A DNA stretch of 38,671 bases. It comes from Candidatus Coatesbacteria bacterium. GTDB lineage: Bacteria > RBG-13-66-14 > B26-G2. Below the pieces are notes generated by a model. That model was not told where the DNA came from. It made no database searches and worked only from the letters and a program-made list of their open reading frames with translations. Position 1 is the stretch's first letter; every line of letters starts with the position of its first letter. The stretch lies in the NCBI GenBank assembly GCA_003647715.1, contig QMNJ01000001.1:1-38671 (forward strand), given 5' to 3'. Shown here one piece after another: positions 2,149 to 20,593 of this stretch. Both the position numbers and the translations under genes were made by a program.

Positions 2149-2169
2149 TAAAAATCCTCCGTCTGTTAA

Positions 2170-2658: not shown

Positions 2659-2678
2659 ATAAATATATCTAAATCTGT

Positions 2679-3104
2679 CTAAATAATCTTGGTCGCATCT
2701 AAATGACTCATCTTACCTACCTCAATTACCTTTTTTACGAGGTCCTGGATGTTCATCTCTCTGTGATATGCAATAGCAGATATCAACATAGGTAAATTCA
2801 AGCCGGTAACTAATGCGGTTTCTATGTTATTTGACCTGAGATTCTTTACCGCCTCTACTGCTGAGTTTGCCGGACTGGCTCCCCACATATCGGTTAATAT
2901 GAGAATTGCTTCACATCTGCTTTTAAGTTCATCTGCCTCATGTTTTATCACCTCAACAACCTCTTCCAATTTATCCTTTGACCTCACCGATACACAACGA
3001 ATCAGATTGGTTCTGCCAAGTATTAACTCCGCTGCCTCCATCATATCTCTGCCAATCGTGTTGTGGCTTACTAATAGTAACCCTATGCTATGGTTATTCT
3101 TCAT
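2679..3104 (-). CDS. PTS EIIA component, mannose/fructose family
   Basis: IGLLLVSHNTIGRDMMEAAELILG matches the EIIA-Man N-terminus, including the active-site His. I prefer the ATG at 3104 (MKNNHSIGLL..), which overlaps the hprK stop as ATGAAGAATAA. The track ORF starts at a TTG at 3134. Confidence 0.85.
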   Translation of the reverse strand: MKNNHSIGLLLVSHNTIGRDMMEAAELILGRTNLIRCVSVRSKDKLEEVVEVIKHEADELKSRCEAILILTDMWGASPANSAVEAVKNLRSNNIETALVTGLNLPMLISAIAYHREMNIQDLVKKVIEVGKMSHLDATKII

Positions 3105-4053: not shown

Positions 4054-4087
4054 ATTTGGTAATGACAACTTATAGTAATAATTAAAT

Positions 4088-4555
4088 CTAACTCAATTCT
4101 TCTTCTCTCTTTGATATGAGTTTTAATACATCATCAGGGGTTTTTGCCTTATTCAACTCCTCTCTGAATTCCTCCTTTTTTAGCATTCTTGAGAGTCGTG
4201 CCAGTGCCCTTAGATGTTCTTGGTCATTTGGGGCGGCTAGCATAAAGAATATATATACCGGTTCTTCATCCAGCGCCTCAAAGTCCACTCCATTCTTTGA
4301 CGAACCAAATGCAATGGTTAGGTTCTCCACTATATCCGGCTGACCCTGTCTTGGATGTGGAATTGCTACTCCATGCTCAAAGCCGGTGGAACATAGTCGC
4401 TCTCTTTCCACCACCGCTTCGTATATCCTGTTCGGGTCTTTGATGTTTCCTGAATTGGATAGAACCTCAACCATCTCTTTCAGGATTTCATCTTTTGTTT
4501 TACCTGTCAGACCAATCTTAATGGTCTTACTTGAGATGTGGTCAGCAATACGCAT
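4088..4555 (-). CDS. ptsN: PTS EIIA-Ntr (nitrogen regulatory IIA)
   Basis: 155 aa with a fructose/mannitol-type EIIA fold and GVAIPHPR (phospho-His motif). Sits in the typical position next to hpf and rpoN. GGAGG SD before the ATG at 4555. Confidence 0.9.
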   Translation of the reverse strand: MRIADHISSKTIKIGLTGKTKDEILKEMVEVLSNSGNIKDPNRIYEAVVERERLCSTGFEHGVAIPHPRQGQPDIVENLTIAFGSSKNGVDFEALDEEPVYIFFMLAAPNDQEHLRALARLSRMLKKEEFREELNKAKTPDDVLKLISKREEELS

Positions 4556-4579
4556 ATTATTCCTCCCTGTAAAAATATG

Positions 4580-5095
4580 TTATAATGGTTTTAACAAACA
4601 AATCCTACCGTCAGTTCTTCTGTATAATACATTAACCCTGTCGGTATGAGCATCTATAAATGCAAAAAACTCGTGATTAGATGACCTGAAATGCTGTAGT
4701 GCTTCTTCCATCGTCATCGGTTTGTATTGTATATTATGAATAATAATCTCCTCTTCAGCAATGGTGGTTGTTTCCTCCTCAACGGTTGGTTCCGTTGCCG
4801 GTCGCTTTGATGATAAGTATCTATCCTTCTGGCGTCTTATCTGCTTTTCAATCTTATCAAATGCATTATTAATTGAGGTTCTGAGGTCGTTGGAATCATC
4901 AGTTCCCCTATAGGAATGACCTTTGGATTTTAGAGATACCTCAACGATATATCTGTGCTTTTCTAAACTTATCACCATATTTAGATTATCATAACCAAAT
5001 TTTAACATTCTCTCAATTTTAGATAACCTCTTATTTATATATTTCTCGGTTGATGGTGAAATTTCAATATTTTTACTCTGAATGTTTATAGCCAT
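4580..5095 (-). CDS. hpf: Ribosome hibernation promoting factor (long HPF)
   Basis: The N-terminus MAINIQSKNIEISPSTEKYINKRLSKIER is typical of sigma-54 modulation protein/HPF. The C-terminal FFAFIDAHTDRVNVLYRRTDGRICLLKP is the long-HPF dimerisation domain. GGAGG SD present. Confidence 0.9.
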   Translation of the reverse strand: MAINIQSKNIEISPSTEKYINKRLSKIERMLKFGYDNLNMVISLEKHRYIVEVSLKSKGHSYRGTDDSNDLRTSINNAFDKIEKQIRRQKDRYLSSKRPATEPTVEEETTTIAEEEIIIHNIQYKPMTMEEALQHFRSSNHEFFAFIDAHTDRVNVLYRRTDGRICLLKPL

Positions 5096-5116
5096 ATTAA
5101 CCTCCTTACCTTCTGT

Positions 5117-5995
5117 TCATACAGTCGCATGGTATGATGTTCTGGCTAATGGTTCTGATAATACACTTTCAAACCCCATCTCTTTCGCCCTCTCACCCCA
5201 TTCTTTAAATTCTTCTTCTGTATAGTATCTGCTTACTGGAACATTCGCATGTGACGGTCTTAAATATTGACCTATAACCAACTTCTTAACCTTCACATCT
5301 CTCAGGTCATACATCAGTTCCTCAATTTCTTCGTTTTTTTCACCCAATCCTAACATAAAGCCCGACTTTGTGGATATACCATCTTTCCTGCTGTTTATTT
5401 TTCGCAATATCTCAAGAGACCTATCGTAGTCAGCGCCAGGGCGAATGCTTTTATATAATCTTCTCACCGTCTCAATATTATGAGAGATACAGTATGGCTC
5501 ACTGTCTATGACCCTATTGAGGGCATCTTCATCACCATTGAAGTCAGGAATCAGTATCTCAACCTTTGTAGCAGGCGAGTGTTTTCTTATCATCTTTACG
5601 GTCTCGTAGAAGACCCCGGCGCCGCCATCCTGCAGGTCGTCTCTGGTAACTGATGTAATAACCACATAGTCCAGATTTAGCTCCCTTAGGGCTAATCCTA
5701 CCCTCTCGGGCTCATCTGGTTCAACTGGTAGTGGTATGCCACCGGTTACACCGCAGAAAGCACACCCTCTGGTGCATATATTCCCGAGTATCATAATAGT
5801 CGCTACGCCGGCGCTGAAGCACTCGCCCTTATTAGGACACTTCGCCTCCTCACATACCGTGTGAAGGCGGTATCGCTTCAATATATTGAGTATCCTTTTT
5901 GTGGAACCCGCCTCTGGCAATCCCGTCTTCTTATATCTTGGGGGTCTTCTCATATTATTCAAAGCGAGTGTATCATTCTTTCTGATAAGCCCCAT
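5117..5995 (-). CDS. lipA: Lipoyl synthase
   Basis: CEEAKCPNKGEC (auxiliary cluster, CX4CX5C) and CTRGCAFC (radical-SAM CX3CX2C). The ATG at 5995 has a GGTGAGG SD and overlaps the lpdA end by 37 nt. An alternative ATG lies at 5953. Confidence 0.95.
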   Translation of the reverse strand: MGLIRKNDTLALNNMRRPPRYKKTGLPEAGSTKRILNILKRYRLHTVCEEAKCPNKGECFSAGVATIMILGNICTRGCAFCGVTGGIPLPVEPDEPERVGLALRELNLDYVVITSVTRDDLQDGGAGVFYETVKMIRKHSPATKVEILIPDFNGDEDALNRVIDSEPYCISHNIETVRRLYKSIRPGADYDRSLEILRKINSRKDGISTKSGFMLGLGEKNEEIEELMYDLRDVKVKKLVIGQYLRPSHANVPVSRYYTEEEFKEWGERAKEMGFESVLSEPLARTSYHATV

Positions 5996-7326
5996 AATGC
6001 CTCACCTGTTGCCTCTGACAGGGTAGGGTGACTATGGACAAGGTCTTTGAACTCATCTGCTTTCATCTCAGAGAGTATTGCCAGTGAAATCTCACCAATC
6101 AATTCGCCAGCAGATAGACCGACTATGGTTCCCGATAGAATCCTTCCATCAGCACCTGAGATTATTTTAACGAAACCATCTGTCTCTCCCATCGCAAGTG
6201 CCCTTCCAAGCGCTCTAAAATGAAATGTGCTTGTTGTGTATTCATACCCGCTCTCTTTCAATTCATCCTCAGTGGGTCCCACTTGGGCTATTTCAGGTAT
6301 TGTATATACCACACTTGGAATAATATCATATCTCACCTTTCTTTTGTATCCAAGTATATTCTCTACCGCTATTACGCCTTCGTAGAATGCCTTGTGAGCC
6401 AGCATGGGGCGGGGAAGAATGTCGCCAATAGCATAGATATTGCCACAGCCAGTGTGGAGGTATTCATCGGTCTCCACAAAGCCACCGTTATTCAGCTTTA
6501 TACCACCTATATTGCTGAAACTATCGGTATTGGGAACCCTGCCAACCGATAGTAAGATACATTCTGCTTCAATCACTATGCCGTCCTCTAAGGTCGCTTC
6601 CAGACAGCCGTCCTTCTTTGTCCATCTCTTGATAGTAGTTTCTGTTGAAAGTTTTACTCCAAGTGATTTCAATTTTGATGCGATGACCCTTGAGGCGCGT
6701 TTATCACTGCCAGGAATTGCTCTATCAAGCAGTTCAACAAGATAAACCTTGACACCTATATTTGCGAATATATATGCAAACTCACATCCGATTGCACCCG
6801 CTCCAACCACTATCAATCTCGCTGGTGGTTTTTCTAGTTCAAGTATATCATCACTGGTCAGAATGTATTTGTTATCTATCTCAAGACCAGGTAATGAAGA
6901 AGGTTTTGAACCAGTAGCAAGAATTATATTGTTCGCCCTGATTTCCTCTACTCCATCAACCATAATTGTGTTCTCTGATGTAAGCTCTCCATATCCCTCT
7001 ATCAAGTCAACCTTTAACTTCTTCAAAAGGTGCAGAACACCATCCCTCAATGTTTTCACCACCTCTTCTCTCGTCTTCAACATGCGTTTGTAGTTGAATT
7101 CAGCATCTCTGATATCAACGCCGTATTCGCTTGAATTTAATGCTATGTTGTATCTGTGCCCTGCTTCTATCATCACCTTGGTAGGTATACAGCCCCGATT
7201 AAGGCAGGTGCCACCTACCTTATCCTTCTCTATTAGGGCTACACTCACTCCCATCTTCGCCGCCCTTATCGCTGCTACATATCCACCCGACCCTCCTCCC
7301 AGAATTGCTATATCATATTCCCTCAA
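5959..7326 (-). CDS. lpdA: Dihydrolipoyl dehydrogenase (E3)
   Basis: GGGSGGY FAD motif, redox disulfide GGTCLNRGCIPTK, second dinucleotide fold VVGAGAIGCEFA, and C-terminal HSHPTLSE. TTG start at 7326 with GGAGG 8 nt upstream. Confidence 0.93.
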   Translation of the reverse strand: MREYDIAILGGGSGGYVAAIRAAKMGVSVALIEKDKVGGTCLNRGCIPTKVMIEAGHRYNIALNSSEYGVDIRDAEFNYKRMLKTREEVVKTLRDGVLHLLKKLKVDLIEGYGELTSENTIMVDGVEEIRANNIILATGSKPSSLPGLEIDNKYILTSDDILELEKPPARLIVVGAGAIGCEFAYIFANIGVKVYLVELLDRAIPGSDKRASRVIASKLKSLGVKLSTETTIKRWTKKDGCLEATLEDGIVIEAECILLSVGRVPNTDSFSNIGGIKLNNGGFVETDEYLHTGCGNIYAIGDILPRPMLAHKAFYEGVIAVENILGYKRKVRYDIIPSVVYTIPEIAQVGPTEDELKESGYEYTTSTFHFRALGRALAMGETDGFVKIISGADGRILSGTIVGLSAGELIGEISLAILSEMKADEFKDLVHSHPTLSEATGEALWGLSERMIHSL

Positions 7327-7344
7327 ATCTCATACCTCCATTAT

Positions 7345-8685
7345 CTATATCCTCTTATTCCTTCTTACTACTCCAGATAATCTTTTTCTCTTCCACAACG
7401 ACGGTATATTAAGCATATCTCTGTATTTCGCTACTGTTCTGCGGGCAATATCATAACCATCCGCCTTGAGTTTTGCAAGTATCTCTTCATCCGATAGGGG
7501 ATTTCTGGGGTCTTCATCAGCGATTATCTCTTTTATCGCCTCCAGTATCTCCCTCTGTGATTTATCCCTGACCTTCTTGGTGAAGAATATCTTCATGGGA
7601 AGTATGCCATGCGGTGTCTTTATATACTTTGATGATACTGCTCTGCTTATCGTAGAGATTGATGTGCCCAGTTTGTCTGCTATATCCTCCATCTTCAGGG
7701 GTCTTATTCCCTTGAGACCCTCTTTTAAGAAGCGGGGTTGTGCGTCCAGCACCGCCTGAGATACCTCAAGGACTGTCTCCAGGCGCCGGTTCACCGTCCA
7801 GCGCATATCCTTTGCCTGCCTGAATAACCCTCTGATGAACCTCAAATCATCTTTCGTTACTCCCTCCGAATTCATAATTGTGTTATAGTATTCGCGCTTA
7901 ACTATCAGATTGGGACAAGCCCTGGGGTTAAGTCGCACCTTAAGACCACCATTTGCGGGCACTGCCTCCAGTTCCCACTCTCCAACCCGCTCAATGTCAT
8001 CCATACCCTCAGCCGGATATGGTCTGGCATTTCTTATCAGTATCTTAAACTCTTCAAACTTTTCCTCTGTAAGTTTGTATCTCTTTGAGATATCTGTGTA
8101 TTCAATTCCAGGATTCTTGATGTATGTTTTAACCAGTTGTTTCAAATTCTTTATCCTGAAACCCGCCTCACGCAACTGTATTTCAATTGCCTCCTCAACG
8201 CTCTCGGCACCTACTCCTGTCGGCTCCATCCTCTGTATCACCCTTTTGAGCACATCTCTAAGTTTGCTCTCCTCAATACCATACCACTTTGAGAGTTCAG
8301 TCACGGAGGCGGTAAAGAGACCCCGCTCATCTATCTCGCCTATAAGTATTTCGCCAATCTTTTTCTCCTCTTCACTTTCAACTAAAAGGTTTAACTGATT
8401 GAGAAGGTGACTCTGGAGGGAGGGCTTTCTATTAGCGATTTTTGCCTCCATCACCACTCGCCTATTGGGCTCGTAATCGGAGGTCGGCGCTGTTTCATCG
8501 GGATAATCCTCCTCTGTTGATTCATCAGAAACATCCACGAAAGGGTTCTGCTCAGCTGACTGCCTGAGGTAGGTTCTCAACTCCTGAGCCGGCATTCTGA
8601 GTATCTTGATGTATTCAAGAACCCTCGGCGCCATCTTCAATTTCTGCTTTATCTTCTGCTCGCTTTTCTGTGCTCTATCAACCAT
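7345..8685 (-). CDS. rpoN: RNA polymerase sigma-54 factor
   Basis: 446 aa with RpoN box ARRTVAKYR, HTH LGTSISTISRAV and region I-like QKLKMAPRVLEYIKILRMPAQEL. Confidence 0.93.
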   Translation of the reverse strand: MVDRAQKSEQKIKQKLKMAPRVLEYIKILRMPAQELRTYLRQSAEQNPFVDVSDESTEEDYPDETAPTSDYEPNRRVVMEAKIANRKPSLQSHLLNQLNLLVESEEEKKIGEILIGEIDERGLFTASVTELSKWYGIEESKLRDVLKRVIQRMEPTGVGAESVEEAIEIQLREAGFRIKNLKQLVKTYIKNPGIEYTDISKRYKLTEEKFEEFKILIRNARPYPAEGMDDIERVGEWELEAVPANGGLKVRLNPRACPNLIVKREYYNTIMNSEGVTKDDLRFIRGLFRQAKDMRWTVNRRLETVLEVSQAVLDAQPRFLKEGLKGIRPLKMEDIADKLGTSISTISRAVSSKYIKTPHGILPMKIFFTKKVRDKSQREILEAIKEIIADEDPRNPLSDEEILAKLKADGYDIARRTVAKYRDMLNIPSLWKRKRLSGVVRRNKRI

Positions 8686-9124: not shown

Positions 9125-12100
9125 ATGAAAGACCCGGGAAGAATAACCCTGGTTGTGGCGATAGGATTGGTTTTGTGTTTATCTATTACCTTCTCATATA
9201 CAGAAGAGTGGGTAGTAGATTATGCAGGTGTTAAGGCAACTATATCCAGCCCTGCCATTGGCGATGTCAATGGTGATGGCAGGAAAGAGGTAGTAATTGG
9301 CTCAGGAACCGGTGAGCTGTATGTATTTACCGGCTCGGGGAGTATTGCCACTGGTTTCCCAATTGACCTCGGTAGTTCAGTCATTTCGTCCCCAGTTCTT
9401 GCGAATATTGACTCCGATTCAGCACTTGAGATAATCATAGGAACAACCGATGGAAAATTGTATGCCTACAATGGCAATGGCTCAATTGTGTCGGGATTCC
9501 CTGTGGTTGCGGATGATGGAATAGTAGCAACACCCGCAGTAATTGACCTTGATAAAGACGGCAGGAACGATATTATAGTCCCCGCAGTTGATGGAAAACT
9601 CTATGCCTGGTCTGGTAGCGGTGGATTGTTGCCTGGCTTCCCTGAGAAGATCTCAAAGACAGGCAACCCAAGGGTAGAATCATCGCCTGCGGTTGGTGAT
9701 GTTGATGGCGATGGTAACATAGAGATTGCATTTGGTGCTGACGATGGTCGTGTTTACTTTTGCAGGTATGCTTCAGGTGTTCTATCGGTGATATGGTCTA
9801 GAAAGACCGGTTACTATGTAAGGTCAAGCCCCGCCATCGGTGATATTGATGGAGATGGTCTTTACGAGATTGTTGTGGGCAGTGATGACTACTCTGTCTA
9901 TGCCTTTGAACTATCTGGCTCGCCAGTTAGGGGTTTTCCTGTAAGCACCGGTTATAAACTGCGATATGTCTCACCCGCTCTTGCGGATATTGATTTTGAC
10001 ACTGTAGTAGAAGTGGTGGTTGCCAGTGGTGATGGTAATGTCTATGTCATAGATGAAGATGGGACATTTCTTCCTGGTTTTCCTGTAAATCTGAACAGTA
10101 AGGTTCTTTATTCCTCTCCGGTGGTTTCGGACATAGACGGAGATGGCAAGCTGGACATAATAGTCGGGTGTGAGAACGGGAATGTCTATGCTGTCTCAGG
10201 GGATGGCACCATAATGCCTGGCTATCCATATGTTCTGGGTGGAGCAGCTTATACCTCACCTGCGGTTGGTAACATAGATGCTGATTCAAGTTTAGAGATG
10301 GTGATAGGTGGAAAGGATGGGTTTTTATACTGTGTGGATGTTGGGGGGATGGAGTCGAGAGCCAACATGCCCTGGTCGCAGTTCAAGAAGGATAATTACA
10401 GAGATTCGGTATTTGGATTTGTAGGTGGTGTAGCTGAGTTGCCATCGGTCACCGTCTCGGATATAAATGATGAGGTCTCTGGTGATGTAACCATCAATTA
10501 TGTTCTCTCGGATAAGCAGGGTGATTACTTAAGCATTCAGGCAATGTATTCAGATGACGCAGGCAGGACCTGGCATGAGGCGAGTATTATTGGAAGGACT
10601 GAAAACATAGGTCCTTCCGAATACAAGGGCAGTTTATTGTGGAAGTCAAATGATGACCTCATAGGTCCGCTGGAGAAGAAGGGCGAGGCAGACCCCGTGC
10701 TCATCGCTGAGGAGAGGAGGGAATATAGAGAGCAGAAGGATATCAAGTTCAAGATTATACCATCTGATTCAAGTGGGATAGGAACCAGTGGTGAAACAAT
10801 ATTATTTCATGTTGATAATAATGTTGCACCATCAATAACAATTGAACCCATAGAGGGCGAGAAGACCGGGGATGTGGTATTCAATTATACAATATCTGAT
10901 GAAGAGCAAGACCTGATAGGTTTACAGTTTGAGTATTCTCTTGACAGTGGTGAGACATGGAAACCCGCCACTGTTTCGGGTGCGACTACATCTATACGCC
11001 CAGCCAGGTATTCCGGACAATGCACATGGGATTCGGTGGCTGATTGTCAGGCGATTGATTCAGAGAATGTGATGTTCAGGATAATCGCATATGATAACGA
11101 CCCTGGACCTCCCGGTTTCTCAAACAAATTTCACCTTGATAACAATACACCTCCCAGGGTCATTGTTGAGGATATCCTTGAAGAGGTAGGGGGAGACATT
11201 GTAATTAATTATCAATTGCAGGACAGGGAGGAGGATAAGCTGTCACTTGACTGCTTCTATTCACTTGATAGCGGCGAGAACTGGGAGAAGGCAACGGTGG
11301 AGGGGAACATAACCGATATAACCTCTACCGATTATAAGAGTAATCTGGTGTGGAAGAGTTTGGATGACACCAGAGGTGTTGATATAAGGACGACGCAGTT
11401 CAAGATAGTTCCTATGGACAATGACGAGGGAAAGATAGATACCACCAGTAATTTCCACCTTGATAATAACAATCCGCCTGCGGTCAAGGTTGCAGAGGTG
11501 GTAGGTGAGCAGACGGGCGAGTTTCCCATTGGCTTTACAATCAGTGATGATGAGGGTGACGAGGTGTCGTTGTTATGTGAGTATTCCAAGGATAAAGGGC
11601 AGTCGTGGATAAACGCTACGGTCAGTGGACGCTTAAGCGGTATAAAACCTGCTGATTATTCCAGTGAATTGATGTGGGACTCAATAATTGACCTTCTTGG
11701 AGTGGATTCTGCAGAGATACTGTTCAGGATAACGCCTTCCGACGCAGATGTTGGTGAGCCGGGTGTAAGCGGAATGATTTATGTAGATAATAACAAACCA
11801 CCATCAATATTACTGTCAGATTTCACTGAGGAGCAGAGTGGTGATATAGATGTCTATTTCACCGTCTCTGACCTTGAGAGGGATACTGTGAGTTTATACT
11901 GTGAGTATTCACCTGATGCCGGCACAACCTGGTATGAGGCGACAGTGTCAGGTAATACTGATTTCGGGGAGGAAGGATATATTGGGCATATTACCTGGAA
12001 TTCACTTGTTGATGTTCCTGACCAATATCTTGAAAAAACCAGGTTCAGAATAACACCTTCTGATAATGATGAGGGTGAGCCGGGGACGACCAATAACTTC

Positions 12101-15100
12101 ATCGTTGATAACGACAATCCACCAACCGTTGTCGTTATGGGTGTCAGCGGTGAACAAGCAGGAGATATAACTATTCCTTATGAGATAAGCGATAAAGAAG
12201 GCGACCCGGTCTCGTTATTTGTTGAATATTCAGTTGATGGGGGTGAAAACTTCTATCCAGCAACTATAACCGGCTCTTTGGAGGGCATCACCGTAGGCAG
12301 TTACAGAGGCGCCTTTACCTGGGAATCAGAGCGTGATATTAAGGGTGTTGATTCAACTCAAGTCCTGGTGAGAGTGACCCCATCTGACCTTGATGCGGGT
12401 GAACCAGGGATATCGCCTCCCATCTGGGTGGACAATAATACGCCTCCGACAATCTCTCTTTCAGATGTTTCAGGCGAACAGTATGAGGATGTTGTCATTG
12501 ATTACTCCATAGATGATATGGAATCAGACCTGGTGAGTTTGATATGTGAGTTTAGTGAGGACGGTGGTTTGAACTGGAAACCCGCTACGGTTGAGGGCTT
12601 TATTGAGGAGATAGACAGCACCGGTTATTTAGGCTCTGTGATATGGAGAAGCGATTCTGACCTGCCTGGCACTGACCAGATGGATATTAGGTTCAGGATA
12701 ACACCAGTTGATAATGATACTGGAACCCCTGGGGAGACAGAGAACTTCCATCTTGATAATAACGAACTTCCATCTATTATAGTTGAGGATATCACAGAAG
12801 AGCAGAGTGGTAATGTCTCTGTCTCATATAAACTGGAGGATGCTGAGTATGATGCCAGTATGATAAAGGTTGAATACTCAAGTGATGGTGGTTTCACCTG
12901 GCACCCCGCAACTGTTGCCACAAAACTGGAGATTGACCCCGCCCGATATGCTGGAACAGTTATGTGGACATCGGAGGCGGATTTACCAGCGATTGACAGC
13001 CACGATGTTATGGTGAGAATTACACCATTTGATAACGACGAGGGCTTCCCCGATGAGACCGACCCATTCCACCTTGACAATAATCAACCACCTGTTGCAG
13101 TGGTTGACGATATACTGGAAGAGGTATCTGAGGATGTGAGAATCTCGTTCTCGCTTGATGATAATGATGGGGATATACTGTCAATAGATGCTGAATACTC
13201 AACCGATGGAGGAGAAACATGGAACACGGCGACTATAACGGGTGACACCGTCAATCTACGACCTCCATATTCAGGCAGTATAATATGGAACTCTACACTT
13301 GATGTTCTGGGGTTAGACAGCGACGATGTGGTATTTAAGATAATACCATCGGATAATGATGTCGGTGAGGCGAAAGTGAGCAATAGTTTCCACCTGGACA
13401 ACAACAGTTTGCCCATATCCTTCGTGGCGGATATTCATGACGAGAGCTCGGGGGATATAGATATTGAATATTCACTTCAGGATGACGAGAGAGACCCGTT
13501 GAGTATCACCTGTTTCTACTCAGATGATGGTGGCTCTACCTGGCGAGAGGCAACCGTTTCGGGAACCACCACCGGTATAACCGAGGTGGGATATGAGGGC
13601 TCTGTAATATGGCATTCTAAAGAAGACCTATTAGGTGTAGATAGAGATGACATTATGTTCAAGGTGGTTGCCAGCGATAATGATACTGGTGAGAGAGCAA
13701 GTCCAGGTCTTGTAGTGCTTGACAACAATAACACACCGAGGGTTGAGGTCAATGCACCTGAGGGTGAGAGTTCAGGAATTGTCAGGGTTCCGGTTGATAT
13801 CTCGGATGATGAGGGTGATATGATTGAACTGGTATGTGAGTTTTCCATAGATGGTGGACAGGTATATCAGCCGGCAACAGTGATAAGTCCAAAGGGTCAG
13901 ATACACACCTCGGAGTATTCAACATTCATTGAATGGGATTCAATGAATGACATAGAGGGACTTGATGTTGAGGATGTGAGATTTAAGGTTATACCATGGG
14001 ATGAGGATGAGGGAGAGGCATCTGTGTCACCACCATTCCATGTTGATAACAATATTCCGCCGATGGTTGAAGTAGCAGGTATTACCGAAGAGGTTTCAGG
14101 TGAGGTCTTTGTTGACTTCACTATTGAGGATGTTGAGAATGATAATGTAAGTATGAAGGTTGAATATTCAATTGATGGTGGAAGAACATGGGCACCTGCT
14201 ACAATAGATGGCAATATGAATAATATAACAAGTTTGATGTATGCTAATACATTTGTGTGGAGAAGCGACCAGGATGTTCCATCAGCCGATTTGACCGATG
14301 TCGCCTTACGGCTCACCCCTAGCGATAGAGATGTTGGAGAGCCGGCTATTGTCTCGCCCATTCACCTTGATAATAACATACCTCCCGAGGTCACTGTTAC
14401 TATTCCCTCTGGTGAACTCACGGGTGATGTGGATATTGGCTATACAATCAGTGACCCCGAGGGAGACACTGTATCATTGATGATGGAGTATTCAGTAGAT
14501 GGTGGAATAACCTATAACGAGGCGACCATAAGTGGACAGATAAGCGGTATTACCCCTGCGAGATACTCTGGAGTTATAAAGTGGGATTCAGGTGCGGATA
14601 TTGCCGGTGTGGATTCAGGGGATATAAGATTACGGGTGGTTGCAATGGATGCGGATGAGGGTAAACCGTTTGAGAGCGAACTAATAAGTGTGGACAATAA
14701 CATTCCACCAGATGTATCTCTTGGTAGTTATGAATTCTCACCCACCGGTGATATAATATTGCTCTATCATCTCTCTGATAATGAGGGTGACAGTTTGAGT
14801 TTGGTGTGTGAATACTCGGAGGATGGAGGTTCCACATTCAAGAATGCAACCATTATGGGGCTTACCACCGATATAACACCAAAGGAGTATGATGGTGAAC
14901 TTATATGGGCAGTGGGAACCGACCTTCCGGGGAAGGTCCTATCAGATGTGCTATTCAGGATAACTCCGTATGATACAGAAGCGGGTCAGCCGGAGACATT
15001 GGCAATAGGTAAACTTGATACCAATATTCCACCTACCTTGAATGTTATTGAACCGTTTGAGGAGGTGTCTGGTGATGTGGCAATAAGTTACTCAATTTAT

Positions 15101-15658
15101 GACCCGGAAGAGGATACAGTGGATTTGAAGGTTGAATATTCGGTGGATGGTGGGATGACATTTAAGGAAGCGACTATAAGGTCTGGTAGCACGGGGATTA
15201 GTTCGTCTGGATATCTGGGCAAGTTTGTATGGGATACAAGGGCAGACCTTGATAATAAGGAATTTAATGTCGTTTTAAGGGTTACAGCAAGCGATATAAA
15301 AGAAGGCGAGGAGATAATAACGCCTTCATTTCCTGTTGATAATAACAGACCACCGAAGATATCAATAAAGAGTTATGCATTGAGCGAAGATAAGGAGACG
15401 GTATCTATTGAATTCACCATTCTGGATGATGAAAGGGACAAGGCGAGAATTAAGTGTCAGTTCAGCGAGGATGGGGGGGTCACATGGAACGATGCTACAG
15501 TTGAGGGAATGACCACCGACCTTGTTCCGGATGGATTATATAAGCTTATATGGAAGAAGTCAGAAGACATCCCAACCATTCTTGAGGGGGCGAGAATCAA
15601 GTTTAAGATAATTCCATTTGATTATGATGAGGGAACATCAAGTGAATTAGAGTTATAA
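9125..15658 (+). CDS. Giant (2177 aa) predicted cell-surface/adhesin-like protein: N-terminal signal/anchor, 8 FG-GAP-like propeller blades, 16 tandem Asp-box modules
   Basis: A single uninterrupted ORF. The hydrophobic N-terminus is MKDPGRITLVVAIGLVLCLSITF. The internal repeat structure is listed separately below. No paralogue or known gene name recognised. Confidence 0.9.
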   Translation: MKDPGRITLVVAIGLVLCLSITFSYTEEWVVDYAGVKATISSPAIGDVNGDGRKEVVIGSGTGELYVFTGSGSIATGFPIDLGSSVISSPVLANIDSDSALEIIIGTTDGKLYAYNGNGSIVSGFPVVADDGIVATPAVIDLDKDGRNDIIVPAVDGKLYAWSGSGGLLPGFPEKISKTGNPRVESSPAVGDVDGDGNIEIAFGADDGRVYFCRYASGVLSVIWSRKTGYYVRSSPAIGDIDGDGLYEIVVGSDDYSVYAFELSGSPVRGFPVSTGYKLRYVSPALADIDFDTVVEVVVASGDGNVYVIDEDGTFLPGFPVNLNSKVLYSSPVVSDIDGDGKLDIIVGCENGNVYAVSGDGTIMPGYPYVLGGAAYTSPAVGNIDADSSLEMVIGGKDGFLYCVDVGGMESRANMPWSQFKKDNYRDSVFGFVGGVAELPSVTVSDINDEVSGDVTINYVLSDKQGDYLSIQAMYSDDAGRTWHEASIIGRTENIGPSEYKGSLLWKSNDDLIGPLEKKGEADPVLIAEERREYREQKDIKFKIIPSDSSGIGTSGETILFHVDNNVAPSITIEPIEGEKTGDVVFNYTISDEEQDLIGLQFEYSLDSGETWKPATVSGATTSIRPARYSGQCTWDSVADCQAIDSENVMFRIIAYDNDPGPPGFSNKFHLDNNTPPRVIVEDILEEVGGDIVINYQLQDREEDKLSLDCFYSLDSGENWEKATVEGNITDITSTDYKSNLVWKSLDDTRGVDIRTTQFKIVPMDNDEGKIDTTSNFHLDNNNPPAVKVAEVVGEQTGEFPIGFTISDDEGDEVSLLCEYSKDKGQSWINATVSGRLSGIKPADYSSELMWDSIIDLLGVDSAEILFRITPSDADVGEPGVSGMIYVDNNKPPSILLSDFTEEQSGDIDVYFTVSDLERDTVSLYCEYSPDAGTTWYEATVSGNTDFGEEGYIGHITWNSLVDVPDQYLEKTRFRITPSDNDEGEPGTTNNFIVDNDNPPTVVVMGVSGEQAGDITIPYEISDKEGDPVSLFVEYSVDGGENFYPATITGSLEGITVGSYRGAFTWESERDIKGVDSTQVLVRVTPSDLDAGEPGISPPIWVDNNTPPTISLSDVSGEQYEDVVIDYSIDDMESDLVSLICEFSEDGGLNWKPATVEGFIEEIDSTGYLGSVIWRSDSDLPGTDQMDIRFRITPVDNDTGTPGETENFHLDNNELPSIIVEDITEEQSGNVSVSYKLEDAEYDASMIKVEYSSDGGFTWHPATVATKLEIDPARYAGTVMWTSEADLPAIDSHDVMVRITPFDNDEGFPDETDPFHLDNNQPPVAVVDDILEEVSEDVRISFSLDDNDGDILSIDAEYSTDGGETWNTATITGDTVNLRPPYSGSIIWNSTLDVLGLDSDDVVFKIIPSDNDVGEAKVSNSFHLDNNSLPISFVADIHDESSGDIDIEYSLQDDERDPLSITCFYSDDGGSTWREATVSGTTTGITEVGYEGSVIWHSKEDLLGVDRDDIMFKVVASDNDTGERASPGLVVLDNNNTPRVEVNAPEGESSGIVRVPVDISDDEGDMIELVCEFSIDGGQVYQPATVISPKGQIHTSEYSTFIEWDSMNDIEGLDVEDVRFKVIPWDEDEGEASVSPPFHVDNNIPPMVEVAGITEEVSGEVFVDFTIEDVENDNVSMKVEYSIDGGRTWAPATIDGNMNNITSLMYANTFVWRSDQDVPSADLTDVALRLTPSDRDVGEPAIVSPIHLDNNIPPEVTVTIPSGELTGDVDIGYTISDPEGDTVSLMMEYSVDGGITYNEATISGQISGITPARYSGVIKWDSGADIAGVDSGDIRLRVVAMDADEGKPFESELISVDNNIPPDVSLGSYEFSPTGDIILLYHLSDNEGDSLSLVCEYSEDGGSTFKNATIMGLTTDITPKEYDGELIWAVGTDLPGKVLSDVLFRITPYDTEAGQPETLAIGKLDTNIPPTLNVIEPFEEVSGDVAISYSIYDPEEDTVDLKVEYSVDGGMTFKEATIRSGSTGISSSGYLGKFVWDTRADLDNKEFNVVLRVTASDIKEGEEIITPSFPVDNNRPPKISIKSYALSEDKETVSIEFTILDDERDKARIKCQFSEDGGVTWNDATVEGMTTDLVPDGLYKLIWKKSEDIPTILEGARIKFKIIPFDYDEGTSSELEL
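9245..10342 (+). repeat. Eight FG-GAP/VCBS-like beta-propeller blade repeats (coding, aa 41-406 of the giant protein)
   Basis: Eight copies at roughly 47-50 aa spacing of the pattern SSPA(I/V)GD(I/V)(D/N)GDG..E(I/V)(I/V)(I/V)G..DG.(L/V)Y(A/V)..(G)..G...GFP. Examples: SSPAIGDVNGDGRKEVVIGSGTGELYVF, SSPAVGDVDGDGNIEIAFGADDGRVYF, SSPVVSDIDGDGKLDIIVGCENGNVYAV. Confidence 0.8.
10436..15655 (+). repeat. 16 tandem in-frame coding modules of 321/324 nt (107-108 aa). Module 1 is 129 aa with an insertion and module 16 is 103 aa.
   Basis: Module starts counted from the sequence: about 10436, then 10823, 11147, 11471, 11795, 12116, 12440, 12764, 13085, 13406, 13730, 14054, 14378, 14702, 15026 and 15347. 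Consensus: xPPxvxVxdixgEqsGDvxIxYxlsDxEgDxvSLxcEYSxDGGxTWxxATvxGxxxxIxxxxYxGxxxWxSxxDlxGvDsxdvxFRItPsDnDxGxPgxsxxFhlDNN. The copies are diverged at the nucleotide level. Confidence 0.9.
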
Positions 15659-15668: not shown

Positions 15669-16826
15669 ATGGCTGAGGAAAAGAAACTGTATCTGAGAGT
15701 AAAAGGTGTTGAGCACGGACCCTTCACTGTGGAAGAGGTAAAGACCTGGATTGAGGGTGGGAAGTTCAAGCCAACCGACTATATAAGAATGGAGGGGATG
15801 AAGCACTGGGTGATGGCTAAGAACCTGGTTCACCTCAAGGAATATTTTGATGCCAAGAAGGAGGAGGATAGAAAGGGAGCATTTGCTTCATGGCTGGGAC
15901 AGGTTAGAGAAGGTAAGCCACCTATTGTGTTGACTCCCACTGGTGTAACGGAGGAGCATACAAGGATTGCAGAGGCAAGGAAGCAACTTGAAGAGGATGC
16001 GAAGCGACTTGAAGAGAGAGAAGCGGAGTTAAGGGAGCAGATAGAGAGGGAGTTAACCAAGAAGCAGGAGGAGGAGTTTGAGAGATTGCGTAAGGAGAGA
16101 GAGCGTCTTGAGGAACATCGGATGGAGTTAGAAGAAGCCGAGATAGAGATAAAACAGATGGAGAAGACGGTGAGGAGGAGAAGGAGAATACCCTTGATAA
16201 TAGCAGGGGCTGTTATAGTTGCAGTTATTGCGGTCAGCACTCCAATTGTTATTAATTACTACAAGAGCACGAAGGAGTTGCAGGAGGCAATCAATAGAAT
16301 AGACATAATTGACAATGAGATTAAGAACCTGATGGCTAAATTAGAAGATGCAGAGACAACGATGGAGAGAGAAGCAATAATGGAGAAGATAGAGGAGTTG
16401 AAGAAGGAGAGGGAGGAATTGGTCAAAGAGGTTGAGAAGAAAGGCGGAGGGGAACCAATTGAAAATATTGAGACCACCCTCGGTAGTGTCAGTATTACAG
16501 GTCCGTTAAGCATTATCGGTCCAGGGTCTGATGACCCATCAAGGAGCTCTTCTACGGTGGATTCCATCATCAGAGGTAGAATGGGTGCAATCAATAGTGT
16601 TTACAACCGAGAATTAAGGAGCAATCCATCGCTAGAGGGAAAGGTAGTAGTATCGTTTACTGTATCCTCTGATGGGACGGTTACCCGAGCTAATGTAATA
16701 TCCTCCACACTCAGCAACTCCAAACTTGAGAATGCAATTGTCTCTAATATTATGCTCGCTAGATTCCCAAGCACCAGCAGTGGTGATATTACGGTTACTT
16801 ATCCGTTTACCTTTGAAACAAAATAA
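15669..16826 (+). CDS. GYF_2 domain / coiled-coil / single TM / AgmX-PglI-type (TonB_C-like) C-terminal domain protein (GltJ-like architecture)
   Basis: N-terminus GPFTVEEVKTWIEGGKFKPTDYIRMEGMKHWVMAKNL has the GYF_2 pattern. An E/K/R-rich coiled coil follows, then RRRRR and the TM IPLIIAGAVIVAVIAVSTPIVINYY (aa 174-197). The C-terminus GRMGAINSVYNRELRSNPSLEGKVVVSFTVSSDGTVTRANVISSTLSNSKLENAIVSNIMLARFPSTSSGDITVTYPFTF fits the AgmX/PglI / TonB_C pattern. AAGGA SD present. The start lies 10 nt after the giant gene stop. Confidence 0.7.
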   Translation: MAEEKKLYLRVKGVEHGPFTVEEVKTWIEGGKFKPTDYIRMEGMKHWVMAKNLVHLKEYFDAKKEEDRKGAFASWLGQVREGKPPIVLTPTGVTEEHTRIAEARKQLEEDAKRLEEREAELREQIERELTKKQEEEFERLRKERERLEEHRMELEEAEIEIKQMEKTVRRRRRIPLIIAGAVIVAVIAVSTPIVINYYKSTKELQEAINRIDIIDNEIKNLMAKLEDAETTMEREAIMEKIEELKKEREELVKEVEKKGGGEPIENIETTLGSVSITGPLSIIGPGSDDPSRSSSTVDSIIRGRMGAINSVYNRELRSNPSLEGKVVVSFTVSSDGTVTRANVISSTLSNSKLENAIVSNIMLARFPSTSSGDITVTYPFTFETK

Positions 16827-16839: not shown

Positions 16840-17970
16840 TTACCTTACAAGGTTTAATTTCTCTTTTACAAATTGCATTATCTCTTCGGGGTCTATATCC
16901 TCCCAACATATCATCCTAACGCAGTTCTCAAGGTATCCATCTCTATAACAGGGAGCACATTTTACACGGGGGCTGATAATAATTGAATTATCGTTTTTAT
17001 ATGGTCCATATCTAACTGGATTAGTCGGTCCAAAGATTACAATGGTGGGTGTCTTGAACGCAGACGAAATATGGAGGGGGAGGGAGTCATTAGTTATCAA
17101 TAGGCGAGAGCACTTTATTACTGCCGATACCTCTGGGATGGTAGTTTTACCAGTAATGTCCGTGATATTTGAAGATAGAGAGGCAAGTATTCTAGCCCTT
17201 TTTCTATCACTTTTGCTACCAATGATTAAAATTGGAATACTTAATGAACAAAGTTTCTGAACGAGTGCATTCCATTTGTTAATTGGCATTAATTTATTAG
17301 GCATCTTTGTCTTTGGGTTGTCGCCACCACCAGGTGCTATGACTATGTATTTCTCTGAGATGCCCGCATCCTTTAATTGCTTTTCTACTTTATTGGTCAC
17401 TTTCTCTGTGAGGAATATCTCAAGCCCTTTATCCTCAGGTTTACCACCGAGTGAGAGAACCACATTGAGGTATTCATCTGCCTGATGTATTGTCTCATCA
17501 TATTCAGTTGAGTAGTTCAGAAGTGCTCCCTCACCCCTGCGGTTTATTCCTGCCAGGATACCAGAGCAGATAATTCTAAATATCAGCGCGAAGGCAAATG
17601 AGTGATGAAATAGAATACAGAGGTCGTAGTCCTGTTTTCTTATGTCAAGCATTAGTTGCATTATTTTAATTGGGTTGAGAGAGATAAATATAGATTCATC
17701 CACTGTCAATATTCTGTTAATGTTAGGATTGGTAGCAATGATTGGTGATGACCTAATCCCTGTCAGGTAGTTAATCTCTGCATTGGGGAATAATCTTCTC
17801 AGGGTTCTCAGGGCGGGTGTGGTAAGAAGGACCTCACCAGTAGCCCATATTTTGACCACGAGTATCTTTTTAACCTTCTGAGGTCTTTTAGTTCTATTCT
17901 TAAAAGGACTTATGAGAGGAGATATTGCTCTACCGGCAAGTGAACTCAGATTTTCAATCATGAACGGCAT
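16840..17970 (-). CDS. Glycosyltransferase family 9 (heptosyltransferase-like)
   Basis: KILVVKIWATGEVLLTTPALRTLRRLFPNAEINYLT (GT9 N-terminal motif) and LITNDSLPLHISSAFKTPTIVIFGPTNP (GT9 C-terminal motif). Confidence 0.85.
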   Translation of the reverse strand: MPFMIENLSSLAGRAISPLISPFKNRTKRPQKVKKILVVKIWATGEVLLTTPALRTLRRLFPNAEINYLTGIRSSPIIATNPNINRILTVDESIFISLNPIKIMQLMLDIRKQDYDLCILFHHSFAFALIFRIICSGILAGINRRGEGALLNYSTEYDETIHQADEYLNVVLSLGGKPEDKGLEIFLTEKVTNKVEKQLKDAGISEKYIVIAPGGGDNPKTKMPNKLMPINKWNALVQKLCSLSIPILIIGSKSDRKRARILASLSSNITDITGKTTIPEVSAVIKCSRLLITNDSLPLHISSAFKTPTIVIFGPTNPVRYGPYKNDNSIIISPRVKCAPCYRDGYLENCVRMICWEDIDPEEIMQFVKEKLNLVR

Positions 17971-19363
17971 ATATCTCTACCTCCCCTATCTCTTTGAATA
18001 AATAGTAATCATCTTTGATTAAGACCTTTATCTTGTCAGGACTATCAATACCCAGGATGACCCATTGTGGTTTCTGATTCAGTATTATCTGGCACTGTTC
18101 TTCGTGTGAGGGCAGGTGATATTTAGTTCTCTCCTCCTCAGTCAGCAGGTCTGATATTCTTCTGGAGAACTCGCCCAGAAGTAGGTCAGGGTGAGGTATG
18201 CCACTGGTGACATATCCGCTCCACCAGGTTGCGACCACATCATCTTCGTCAACATATTCATCTGTGAAGTCCTGGACTTTCACTATTTCGCTGATTCCAA
18301 CCATAGGTTTAGCATAGTAATTCATAGCAACCCTCCCCAAAGGTCTAACAAGCCCTGTTATGATGAAAAAGAGCATTACAGTTGTTATCAAAATAGATTT
18401 CTTTCGTGATGCTGTTAAATGGTGGATTAAATGGTTGGATGAGATGGCGGTAAATGGAACCAATAATACCAGATACTGGAGTGAAGCAGATATGGGTATA
18501 ATACTGATAATAAGGATGACCAGGACATATAGAGATGATATGCGCTCTATCATTTCAGTTCTTCTGCGGAATAATCTAAATATAGCGATTACTGCGAGTA
18601 TGACTATTATCGCTGAGTTGGGGTCTAATGCCATTTCTTTCACTATGCTAAATCTCGTCATCTGCGACTTATAACCACTGAGTGCGGTGGTGTGAATGCC
18701 GATTACATTGAACAGTAGATAATCGGTGTATTTGAGTGTATAAAATATGATAGGTATTATGCCCGCTATTAATCCGGAGAGAAATGGATAGATATTCCAA
18801 CGATTATTAGTTCTATTGAAGCAGTATATAGGGATGATTATTATGGGTATTAGGATGATTCGTGAAGATATAACAAGACCTGTGAAGAATCCGGACAGAA
18901 GCGCAAATATCAATCGTTTGTTATTGATAGAAAGTATCAAAAACATTATTGAGATAATCAGTAGTAGTATGGTCAGTGAATAGACCTTGACAGGTGATAA
19001 CCAGTTGATTGTTAGATATGAGAAACTGAATATATAGAGTGGTAAACTGCTTGCTTCATTGGTTGTTCTGATTAGCAGGTATAAGATGGTAAGTGAGGTT
19101 ATTGCAAGGGCAACACTGAGGAATCTTCCGGCAATCAGAGATGTCCCGGTAACCTTGAAGAGCAGGGCATATAATAGTGTAGTTAGGGGTGTGTGTGGCA
19201 ATGGAATGTCTCTGTATAATTCATACCCTCTGTTCAAGAGATGTGCTGAGCCAATCCAGAATCCCTCGTCCCTATCCACCGGTCTGTTATATATCTGAGT
19301 TATTAATATAATAGAGAATATGATTAAGATGACTGCAAATGTTCTATTAAGGTTTTTTAACAT
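17954..19363 (-). CDS. Polytopic GT-C glycosyltransferase, PMT_2/ArnT (GT39/GT83)-like
   Basis: 469 aa with about 10 or more hydrophobic helices. The first loop DRDEGFWIGSAHLLNRGYELYRDIPLPHTPL resembles the acidic DE loop of ArnT/PMT enzymes. There is a soluble C-terminal domain. Its end overlaps the GT9 start by 17 nt. Confidence 0.65.
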   Translation of the reverse strand: MLKNLNRTFAVILIIFSIILITQIYNRPVDRDEGFWIGSAHLLNRGYELYRDIPLPHTPLTTLLYALLFKVTGTSLIAGRFLSVALAITSLTILYLLIRTTNEASSLPLYIFSFSYLTINWLSPVKVYSLTILLLIISIMFLILSINNKRLIFALLSGFFTGLVISSRIILIPIIIIPIYCFNRTNNRWNIYPFLSGLIAGIIPIIFYTLKYTDYLLFNVIGIHTTALSGYKSQMTRFSIVKEMALDPNSAIIVILAVIAIFRLFRRRTEMIERISSLYVLVILIISIIPISASLQYLVLLVPFTAISSNHLIHHLTASRKKSILITTVMLFFIITGLVRPLGRVAMNYYAKPMVGISEIVKVQDFTDEYVDEDDVVATWWSGYVTSGIPHPDLLLGEFSRRISDLLTEEERTKYHLPSHEEQCQIILNQKPQWVILGIDSPDKIKVLIKDDYYLFKEIGEVEIYAVHD

Positions 19364-19378
19364 AACCGATTTTTTCTG

Positions 19379-20593
19379 TTATTTCTTACTTCTTTGCCTT
19401 TTATGGTAATTATAGACATTGGTCAGGATTTTCTCTAATGCTTCAGCGTGTTTACCCCATGACTGCTCTTCTTGAATGTATCGGGTAGCATTATCAGATA
19501 GTTTCTGTCTTAATGATGAGTTGTCTCTTATCATCTTGATTGCCTGTGCATATTCATCCGGTTTATCGGGATTGACCAGAATTCCTCTCTCACCATAGCC
19601 GACTATCTTCTCCAGGGTGTCATATTTACTCACTACCACGGGGAGTCCACTTGCCAGGTATTCCATCAATTTTGCCGGTGCCCAGAAGAACCCAAATTCC
19701 TCCAGTGGTTTGTAATAGGAGGCATTGAACGGTGCAAGCCCCACATCGCTTATTGCCATAAGGTAGGGAATTGTTTTGTAGGGCTGGGGACCAAGATAGA
19801 GACAGTATCTCCCGAGACCATTAGAGTGGATGTATTCCATCAATCTTGCCTCTTCGCCCCCTCCACCCACGAGCAAGAAAAGTGCATCTGGAATAATCCT
19901 AGAGGTGTGATAGATAATATCAGGAAGGTCATATATTCCCTGCCATTCTCTGAATGAGCCGACGAATAAGATGAGAAACCTGTTATTTAGATTGTATTTT
20001 TCTATTATTTCTCTGGCGGTGTTAGTATTTCTTAGGTTCTTGTTAAATCTTGAGTGGTCTGCACCCCAGAAAAGTAGGTAGGTTCTGTCTCGTGCGAAGT
20101 CAGGAACTACAGTAGATATTGTGGTAATATTTGCACTTGACTGTCTAAACTGAAAGTTGACCCAGGATTTGAGGGGTGCTTTAATGATGGGCGATTTTAT
20201 CTTCCAGCGGTGTATAATCTCATCAACATGTGGACTGTTCACTTCCAGAACCAGAGGTGTTCTCTTCAGAAATGAGTATATTGCACCAAGACCCCCTGCA
20301 GTTATATATCTCTCCATAACTATATCAAAGTTCTTGTTAAGAAGTGATGGGAGATAGGGGATGGATATCAGTGGGAGTTTTATGCTAATGACCTTCTGCC
20401 AGACCCTGATGACCTTGACGCCATCAACATTTTCAAGGGCACGCTGGTCGTTGCGCCTTAAAGAGAACAGCGTTACCTGGTGTCCAAGTCGGACCAGATT
20501 CCTGGCGACCTCAAAGGTATGAACCGCACCAGCGTGGCTTGCGGGAACATCCTCACATGAGAAGTATAGTATTTTCAATGAGTGGTTATTCAT
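19379..20593 (-). CDS. Glycosyltransferase family 4 (GT-B, group 1)
   Basis: N-terminus HAGAVHTFEVARNLVRLGHQVTLFS and C-terminal E..FG.....KLMEYLASGLPVVVS (EX7E-type region). ATGA start/stop overlap with the upstream gene at 20590-20593. Confidence 0.85.
   Translation of the reverse strand: MNNHSLKILYFSCEDVPASHAGAVHTFEVARNLVRLGHQVTLFSLRRNDQRALENVDGVKVIRVWQKVISIKLPLISIPYLPSLLNKNFDIVMERYITAGGLGAIYSFLKRTPLVLEVNSPHVDEIIHRWKIKSPIIKAPLKSWVNFQFRQSSANITTISTVVPDFARDRTYLLFWGADHSRFNKNLRNTNTAREIIEKYNLNNRFLILFVGSFREWQGIYDLPDIIYHTSRIIPDALFLLVGGGGEEARLMEYIHSNGLGRYCLYLGPQPYKTIPYLMAISDVGLAPFNASYYKPLEEFGFFWAPAKLMEYLASGLPVVVSKYDTLEKIVGYGERGILVNPDKPDEYAQAIKMIRDNSSLRQKLSDNATRYIQEEQSWGKHAEALEKILTNVYNYHKRQRSKK

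Follow-up and report, generated by a model that had tools for sequence, protein, structure and literature searches.

Long tandem arrays of roughly 100-residue beta-sandwiches form the extenders of RTX adhesins such as MpIBP RII, SiiE, MhLap and AhLap, in which conserved Asp, Asn and Glu residues lie at the linkers, and Ca2+ bound there stiffens the array into a rigid structure that presents ligand-binding domains (PMC7493085, PMC4083281). The Asp-box, a hairpin motif, is documented as a single copy in the immunoglobulin-like (Ig-like) domains of sulfite oxidase and chitobiase, as well as in reelin, where it is surface-exposed and aids domain-domain contacts or a rod-like shape, its role being structural rather than sugar-binding (Quistgaard and Thirup, PMC2716378). 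Both tandem acid-linked beta-sandwich extenders and the singlet Asp-box in an Ig-like domain are, in other words, already known. The subject of the present analysis is a 2177-residue protein, referred to here as the stalk protein, encoded by the forward-strand open reading frame at 9125-15658 of a 38,671-nucleotide stretch of Candidatus Coatesbacteria DNA (contig QMNJ01000001.1 of assembly GCA_003647715.1; “the window” denotes this whole stretch). Its translation reads as a signal peptide, an FG-GAP head and a stalk of 16 modules. What appears to be new is an unnamed domain family with thousands of members, which combines an Asp-box staple with a full cadherin-style set of junction motifs, and a 16-unit length that is strictly conserved in the ortholog group of the window protein. 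Current understanding is not overturned by these findings; rather, the class of tandem acid-linked beta-sandwich extenders is extended.

As an explanation of the whole protein we favour, with moderate confidence, an FG-GAP head on an Ig-like rod with Ca2+-stiffened acidic junctions. The stalk protein would be exported by the Sec pathway and would be located at the cell surface or outside the cell, with an eight-repeat FG-GAP beta-propeller as its likely binding head, carried on a rod of 16 tandem Ig-like modules that would be about 60-70 nm long, given that domains of this kind generally span 4-4.5 nm each. Each module would be stapled by one Asp-box hairpin between strands C and C', and neighbouring modules would meet at an acidic pocket, to which the upstream module would contribute E10 and the D103-N104-N105-x-P-P linker, and the downstream module its B-C loop (D23, E25, D27) and F-G turn (D88, D90). 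This proposed layout matches the XEX, DXNDN, DXD and XDX calcium sites of cadherins, and the most likely occupant of the pocket is Ca2+ (or another divalent cation), whose binding would stiffen the linkers and let the array act as a fixed-length spacer. Taken separately, the identification of the array as a tandem Ig-like extender is very probable.

The array of sixteen modules

The stalk comprises the 1740 residues that remain after the signal peptide and head, about 80% of the protein, and is strongly acidic (351 Asp and Glu against 106 Lys and Arg, a net charge of about -245). A regular expression for the Asp-box, [SK]x[DK]xGx[TSNVI][WFY], matches all 16 modules, at residues 476, 605, 713 and onwards to 2114, and one for the junction, (V/L)D(N/T)(N/D)x(1-2)P, finds 15 DNNxPP-type junctions, at nucleotides 10811, 11135 and onwards to 15335. 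A sequence-only reading of this DNA had already reported the combination of the Asp-box with the DNNxPP junction, in 16 modules with starts from 10823 to 15347 at steps of 321 or 324 nucleotides. This description is borne out, its starts being our junction positions plus 12 nucleotides, and the seven Asp-box strings that it quoted are all found in the translation. A profile built from the 16 modules scores orthologs of the protein at E=0 with 16 matches each, so the array is not a product of chance.

Modules are spaced by 107 or 108 residues, except for a first interval of 129 residues that holds a charged insert. All on the forward strand, module 1 (10436-10831), which carries the insert, has 132 residues, and is followed by modules 2 (10832-11155), 3 (11156-11479) and 4 (11480-11803) with 108 residues each, module 5 (11804-12124) with 107, modules 6 (12125-12448) and 7 (12449-12772) with 108, modules 8 (12773-13093) and 9 (13094-13414) with 107, modules 10 (13415-13738), 11 (13739-14062), 12 (14063-14386), 13 (14387-14710) and 14 (14711-15034) with 108, module 15 (15035-15355) with 107 and module 16 (15356-15655) with 100. 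Module 2 was used for the single-module structure prediction described below, and modules 6 and 7 form the two halves of the two-module prediction. The junction of module 14 reads LDTNIPP.

The two ends of the array depart from this regularity. Module 16 stops, as previously noted, right after the DxDEG turn and has no DNNxPP; the protein ends in ...FDYDEGTSSELEL*, with FDYDEG followed by TSSELEL. The same truncation is found in seven of seven orthologs, in each of which the profile match stops at position 96-97. At the other end, the charged insert of about 21 residues that had been described in module 1 is present at 10664-10741 on the forward strand (GPLEKKGEADPVLIAEERREYREQKD; the 21-residue insert contains AEERREYREQKD), where it takes the place of the loop that follows strand E. 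Six of the seven orthologs likewise have a lengthened first spacing, of 127-143 residues, and the sequence of the insert is largely conserved in an alignment of five orthologs. Its location at the head-proximal end of the stalk suggests that the insert is a hinge or docking element.

An unnamed family with a predicted Ig-like fold

Pfam-A (2025 copy), NCBIfam 20.0 and PDB sequences were searched for known relatives of the module. Single modules gave only sub-threshold matches in Pfam-A, centred on the Asp-box (BNR, Reelin_subrepeat-B, CHB_HEX_C, Tli3 and Mo-co_dimer), and no match to any BIg family was found among the tested modules. The above-threshold whole-protein scores of the stalk, such as that of Pfam BNR (PF02012; 68.7 bits against a 27-bit cut-off), arise from the summing of 16 Asp-boxes. 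NCBIfam returned nothing on the stalk but an Asp-box-local match to SoxC. With a broader profile of 95 sequences from diverse family members the outcome was similar: none of the 95 has a Pfam match better than an E-value of about 0.001, and PDB-sequence searches with the narrow and broad profiles produced only Asp-box-local matches, to sialidases and reelin. Homologs are publicly annotated as “hypothetical protein”, “FG-GAP-like repeat-containing”, “VCBS repeat-containing”, “T9SS type A sorting domain-containing” or “HEAT repeat domain-containing”, names that refer to other parts of the proteins and not to the module, and no description of the module was found in literature on the Asp-box with cadherin or on Coatesbacteria. 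The proposal that the module represents an unnamed domain family is upheld by these searches: no confident Pfam assignment was obtained for any single module and, as far as Pfam-A, NCBIfam 20.0 and PDB sequences extend, the module is unnamed.

The family is large. When 1.84 billion representatives of 50%-identity clusters were searched exhaustively by HMMER with the 16-module profile, 2974 proteins were identified at E<=1e-3, 1135 at E<=1e-10 and 392 at E<=1e-30, with up to 37 matched stretches (module copies) in the largest arrays and protein lengths of up to 5918 residues. A word-index search with the same profile gave a single 211-residue match, which reflects the word index and not rarity. 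Named source organisms include Marinimicrobia, KSB1, Rifleibacterium, Thermoplasmata and Aenigmatarchaeota. Judged by these profile matches, the module is a real family with a wide distribution among uncultivated bacteria and archaea. Arrays in other proteins are placed between head-type domains and sorting tails of the type IX secretion system (T9SS). Among the heads are Kelch or FG-GAP propellers, right-handed beta-helices and a 3-keto-disaccharide-hydrolase-like domain, and Big_5, PKD_6, CUB and cohesin domains also occur alongside the arrays. Such surroundings are the ones usual for extracellular spacer domains. A different arrangement is seen in six members (P0022, P0025, P0029, P0039, P0043 and P0053), in which the module recurs every ~470-490 residues instead of every ~108. 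In P0053 the space between modules is filled by Kelch repeats, so that one Kelch propeller and one module may together form a super-repeat.

The AlphaFold2 model of module 2, made from an alignment of the 16 modules only, is confident and all-beta (predicted local distance difference test, pLDDT, 90.4; predicted template-modelling score, pTM, 0.82), with eight strands at residues 2-4, 14-22, 29-36, 48-50, 59-67, 76-87, 91-96 and 100-103, and a one-turn helix at 68-71. The pair of modules 6 and 7 is predicted to be extended (pLDDT 91.8, pTM 0.72), which suggests a defined relative orientation of the two; in the alignment used for the pair, MAFFT shifted overlapping pairs by one module, and the shifted rows still match one query module. 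Foldseek matches to module 2 are at the top all Ig-like (probability 0.98-1.0, with weak E-values and TM-scores of 0.38-0.55), the nearest solved folds, themselves weak matches, being Ig V domains and the sulfite-oxidase dimerisation domain. No close solved structure was found by Foldseek for one or two modules, and cadherins are absent from the top 50 matches. As modelled, the module is an Ig-like beta-sandwich of the two-sheet Greek key type.

This fold bears on two descriptions in the sequence-only reading. The Asp-box had been called “sialidase-type”, which holds as a motif resemblance and fails as a propeller blade; PDB matches to sialidases cover the hairpin only and are not significant per domain. 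A propeller of the sialidase (GH33), GH74 or Vps10 kind was itself considered and rejected, given the 107-108-residue period, the one Asp-box per module and the two-sheet sandwich of the model. The acidic SDxExD motif had been taken for a strand; the motif is present, and residues 23-28 are predicted to form the loop after strand B. The Asp-box in the stalk is a known non-propeller use of the motif, because singlet Asp-boxes are documented in Ig-like domains (PMC2716378).

Besides the RTX-adhesin extenders, three kinds of known domain invite closer comparison, of which cadherin repeats are considered with the junctions below. Domains of the Mo-co_dimer and CHB_HEX_C families are likewise Ig-like beta-sandwiches (E-set) with one Asp-box hairpin, and the Mo-co_dimer type gives the best non-antibody Foldseek matches (sulfite oxidase 2a9b/1sox, SorT 5k3x and SoxCD 2xts). 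However, TM-scores are 0.38-0.47 with E>=4e-3, and the HMM matches are sub-threshold and limited to about 25 residues (for single modules, CHB_HEX_C reaches at best 18.3 bits against a cut-off of 23.6, and Mo-co_dimer an E-value of 0.09). Moreover, these domains are single C-terminal appendages of enzymes rather than tandem units, and they have neither the DNNxPP linker nor the acidic loop set. Reelin subrepeat B (PF21471) shares an Asp-box that supports a rod-like superstructure (PMC2716378). PF21471 is the second most frequent weak Pfam match (18 of the 95 modules, best E-value 0.0026), and reelin 3a7q is the best PDB sequence match to the broad profile (E-value 0.0015, profile positions 3-45). 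Single modules nevertheless stay under the Pfam threshold, reelin is eukaryotic, and its subrepeats are jelly-roll beta-sandwiches belonging to a three-part repeat, of which an EGF module is also a part (PMC2716378).

Conservation was computed on 765 full-length modules from the top 150 proteins. W66 is invariant, and high values are found for D23 (92%), D27 (73%), S68 (78%) and D71 (87%), for the Asp-box (S36 76%, D38 67%, G40 73%, W43 75%), for R/K83 (88%), P86 (74%), D88 (91%) and G92 (85%), and for F100 (71%), D103 (77%) and N104 (88%). The conserved positions are those of the core, the loop ends and the junction, and others are poorly conserved across the family. This distribution matters for the suggestion that the modules themselves bind a ligand, for example as a multivalent carbohydrate-binding array, instead of serving as a passive spacer. 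The association of the Asp-box with glycosidases, from which it is best known (PMC2716378), would favour such a role, as would the occurrence of members with beta-helix and 3-keto-disaccharide-hydrolase-like domains and the ability of some bacterial cadherin-like domains to bind carbohydrate. We consider it very unlikely, since Asp-boxes are structural rather than sugar-binding in the study cited, conservation is confined to core, loop-end and junction positions, and the modules have diverged widely from each other while their number has stayed fixed (see below), which suggests selection on length and not on a binding site.

A family definition would annotate most of the stalk protein and long stretches of thousands of other very large proteins, now called “hypothetical” or named for a terminal domain, in the candidate phyla Coatesbacteria, Zixibacteria, Marinimicrobia, KSB1 and Rifleibacterium, as well as in archaea. 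It would also prevent a series of Asp-boxes from being mistaken for a sialidase-like propeller. The module is well suited to become a new domain-family entry and should be tractable for structural work.

Module junctions and cadherin calcium sites

Cadherin repeats, like the module, are tandem beta-sandwiches of about 108-110 residues, and their linker, DxNDNxP, can be set beside the (V/L)DNNxPP of the module. For the comparison we used a mouse E-cadherin EC1-2 sequence that is 100% identical to PDB 3q2v and 1edh, in which the positions of the published Ca2+ ligands were confirmed. The conserved acidic positions of the ~108-residue module lie in the same register as these ligands. E10 of the module corresponds to cadherin E11 (XEX); D23, E25 and D27 to D134 and D136, which are residues 26 and 28 of their repeat (DXD); S68 and D71 to D67 and E69 (DRE); D88 and D90 to D195, residue 87 of its repeat (XDX); and D103-N104-N105 with P107-P108 to D100-N104 with P106 (DXNDN linker). 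The DRE equivalent amounts to a single Asp, D71, which is independent of the neighbouring module.

If these residues form a pocket between modules, those that face a missing neighbour would be expected to be lost at the ends of arrays. We compared 1125 module instances from the top 150 proteins, including 637 internal modules, 135 that are first and 140 that are last in their array; p-values refer to the changed class against internal modules and, as related sequences are treated as independent, they are optimistic. In first modules, D23 is rarer (0.81 against 0.96 internally, p = 4e-8), as are D/N27 (0.73 against 0.83, p = 0.01), D88 (0.85 against 0.95, p = 1.5e-4) and D/N90 (0.26 against 0.47, p = 4e-6), and E/D10 (0.58 against 0.44), N/D105 (0.68 against 0.58) and P108 (0.66 against 0.59) are kept. 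In last modules the pattern is reversed: E/D10 drops to 0.20 (p = 7e-8), N/D105 to 0.06 (p = 2.5e-33) and P108 to 0.20 (p = 9.5e-18), while D/N27 (0.81), D88 (0.96) and D/N90 (0.53) are largely kept, as is D23 apart from a slight dip from 0.96 to 0.91 (p = 0.02). Neither first nor last modules show a change in the Asp-box, W66, D71 or F100; by this measure the Asp-box is intrinsic to the fold and not an element of the junction. The direction of the losses implies that the B-C loop and F-G turn are directed towards the preceding module, and E10 and the linker towards the following one, an arrangement that fits the proposed inter-module acidic pocket. A direction-specific split of junction residues is also a property of cadherins.

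From this analogy we judge Ca2+ binding at the module junctions to be moderately probable. The principal alternative is a stalk without metal, in which the acidic and Asn residues are loop caps and inter-domain hydrogen-bond partners, and charge repulsion keeps a polyanionic rod extended and non-sticky. Several observations lean towards this alternative and weigh against metal-bound junctions: the central Asp of the cadherin DxNDN is missing from the DNNxPP linker; D23, D88, D71, D103 and N104 are conserved at 54-91% even where the relevant neighbour is missing, and D23, D88, D103 and N104 probably also have roles within the module; and the linker ends in two prolines, proline-rich linkers being able to stiffen without calcium (PMC7493085, on invasins). 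In the opposite direction, the directional losses of E10 and N105 on the one hand and of D23, D27, D88 and D90 on the other reproduce the cadherin ligand layout, and the Ca2+ sites of all tandem extenders with solved structures are typically clusters of this kind, in which five to seven side chains with carboxylate or amide groups converge on one junction. The idea of a Ca-rigidified stalk in the sequence-only reading is thereby supported indirectly, as it also is by the net charge of the stalk and by the confident two-module model. We therefore regard the metal-free stalk as rather unlikely. Two further points tell against Ca2+-stiffened junctions in a surface rod: the geometry of the pocket is deduced from strand topology only, and no LPXTG or other recognised anchoring or outer-membrane export signal was found in the stalk protein.

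Resemblance at the junction need not reflect common descent. A comparison of the module profile with E-cadherin EC1-2 by hhalign gave a probability of 0.1, in what is a weak test given that the target is a single sequence; no match to PF00028 at E<=1-10 was found among the 16 and the 95 modules; and Cadherin_5 reached an E-value of about 0.05 in one of the 95 and one of the 16. Because neither hhalign nor the Pfam cadherin families give a match, membership of the cadherin family is not supported, and at the level of sequence comparison cadherin homology is undetectable, which again counts against a cadherin-like interpretation. Cadherins also differ in having no Asp-box. The cadherin likeness of the linker noted earlier is a partial resemblance, with the central Asp absent, that no detectable homology accompanies. 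Common ancestry of the module and the cadherin repeat, as opposed to convergence, seems to us quite unlikely; it would make the module a true prokaryotic cadherin relative to which an Asp-box staple had been added. If it were so, the five-motif calcium-junction architecture of cadherins would be ancient and widespread in uncultivated bacteria and archaea, and the ortholog group of the window protein would use it as a fixed 16-unit molecular ruler, possibly together with an adjacent TonB-like membrane protein. The reading that we prefer would make the family a clean natural case of cadherin-style junction chemistry built on an Ig-like scaffold of another kind.

Fixed length, head and genomic surroundings

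Between modules, amino acid identity averages 39% (range 20-53%) and nucleotide identity 49% (maximum 59%), and the longest exact nucleotide match is about 14 nucleotides. Tandem Repeats Finder reported nothing in 10436-15655 at the DNA level, the repeats being visible in the protein only. P0002, which has 72% identity to the window protein, is orthologous to it module by module, with 62-84% identity between positional counterparts and 37-50% to the next-best module. Seven distinct orthologs, with pairwise identities of 36-72%, all have exactly 16 modules; they include proteins from metagenome-assembled genomes (MAGs) of Candidatus Coatesbacteria (L001) and Candidatus Zixiibacteriota (L002). 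Full-length members of the same 90%-identity clusters are equal in length to within one residue. A locus search with the single window protein found no relative, and one with an alignment of five orthologs found 80 loci, most of which match the propeller only, the module profile matching only L001-L004. Recent amplification, or a contingency locus, is rejected by the nucleotide divergence together with the fixed copy number. The sequence-only reading had judged the array old, with which the divergence and the module-by-module orthology agree; it had also allowed that copy number might vary by recombination, and of this we find no sign, either in exact repeats that are long enough or in the copy number of the relatives. 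By these comparisons the array is ancient and its 16-module length appears to be under selection, which suggests that spacer length is a selected trait.

The N-terminus of the stalk protein (residues 1-25; 9125-9199, forward strand) reads as a probable Sec signal peptide, MKDPGR followed by the hydrophobic ITLVVAIGLVLCLSITF, and AxA-type cleavage sites are clearer in the orthologs than in the window protein. The head follows at 9200-10435 on the forward strand (residues ~26-437). It scores 84.4 bits with FG-GAP_3 (PF13517; cut-off 26.9) and 63.6 bits with FG-GAP (PF01839; cut-off 22.1), and eight repeats are counted by regular expression at residues 41-396 (window 9245-10312). By these Pfam matches the head is a beta-propeller of FG-GAP/VCBS repeats; the propellers of integrin alpha chains have seven. 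As each repeat has a DxDxDG-like loop, the head may also be Ca2+-dependent. RTX adhesins are substrates of the type I secretion system (T1SS) with C-terminal RTX nonapeptide repeats and a T1SS signal, no N-terminal signal peptide and often near-identical extender repeats, whereas the stalk protein has an N-terminal signal-peptide-like segment, ends in a truncated module and has strongly diverged repeats. A whole-protein Pfam scan found no RTX-type family in it and no T9SS C-terminal domain (Por_Secre_tail or FlgD_ig), and none of the latter was found in the seven orthologs.

Ten nucleotides past the stop codon of the stalk gene lies a forward-strand gene (15669-16826) whose product joins a GYF_2 domain to a C-terminal TonB_C domain and also has a long, charged coiled coil and one transmembrane helix. 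This gene is found 10-92 nucleotides downstream of the stalk gene in three genomes, namely in the window, in L081 (12559-13716), where the stalk ortholog is 72% identical, and in the Coatesbacteria MAG L001 (16699-17871). Its product may be an operon partner or anchor of the stalk protein. The Zixibacteria ortholog locus has no such gene, and two zinc-ribbon proteins follow instead. This neighbour raises the alternative that the stalk protein is a structural component of the envelope, for instance an S-layer-like fibre, or one associated with the periplasm, that the GYF_2/TonB_C protein would tether, and not an adhesin-type stalk presenting a head. The recurrent adjacency, the envelope glycosyltransferases among the flanking genes, the absence of a T9SS or T1SS signal and the same truncated C-terminal module in all orthologs are in its favour. 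Yet gene adjacency is not interaction, the neighbours of the Zixibacteria ortholog differ, other family members are T9SS cargo, and a rod of 16 beta-sandwiches would be far longer than the typical width of the periplasm. We give this alternative little credence compared with a surface stalk carrying an FG-GAP head.

The stalk gene is otherwise surrounded by ordinary chromosomal genes. Just downstream, on the reverse strand, is an envelope glycosylation run (16840-24626) with a GT9 heptosyltransferase, two PMT_2/ArnT-like transferases, a GT4 transferase and a YfhO-like membrane protein, the first two genes of which are also syntenic in L081. Upstream, also on the reverse strand, is a cluster (127-8685) with phosphotransferase system enzyme I, HPr kinase, lipoyl synthase, dihydrolipoamide dehydrogenase and sigma-54, for which synteny is lacking in L081. 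A 585-residue reading frame at 27272-29029 (forward strand) has no Pfam match at E<=1e-5. The reading frames listed at 32201-33847 (M48 peptidase) and 33742-35241 (biotin carboxylase), both on the forward strand, overlap by ~105 nucleotides, and the GTG start of the latter has probably been called too far upstream.

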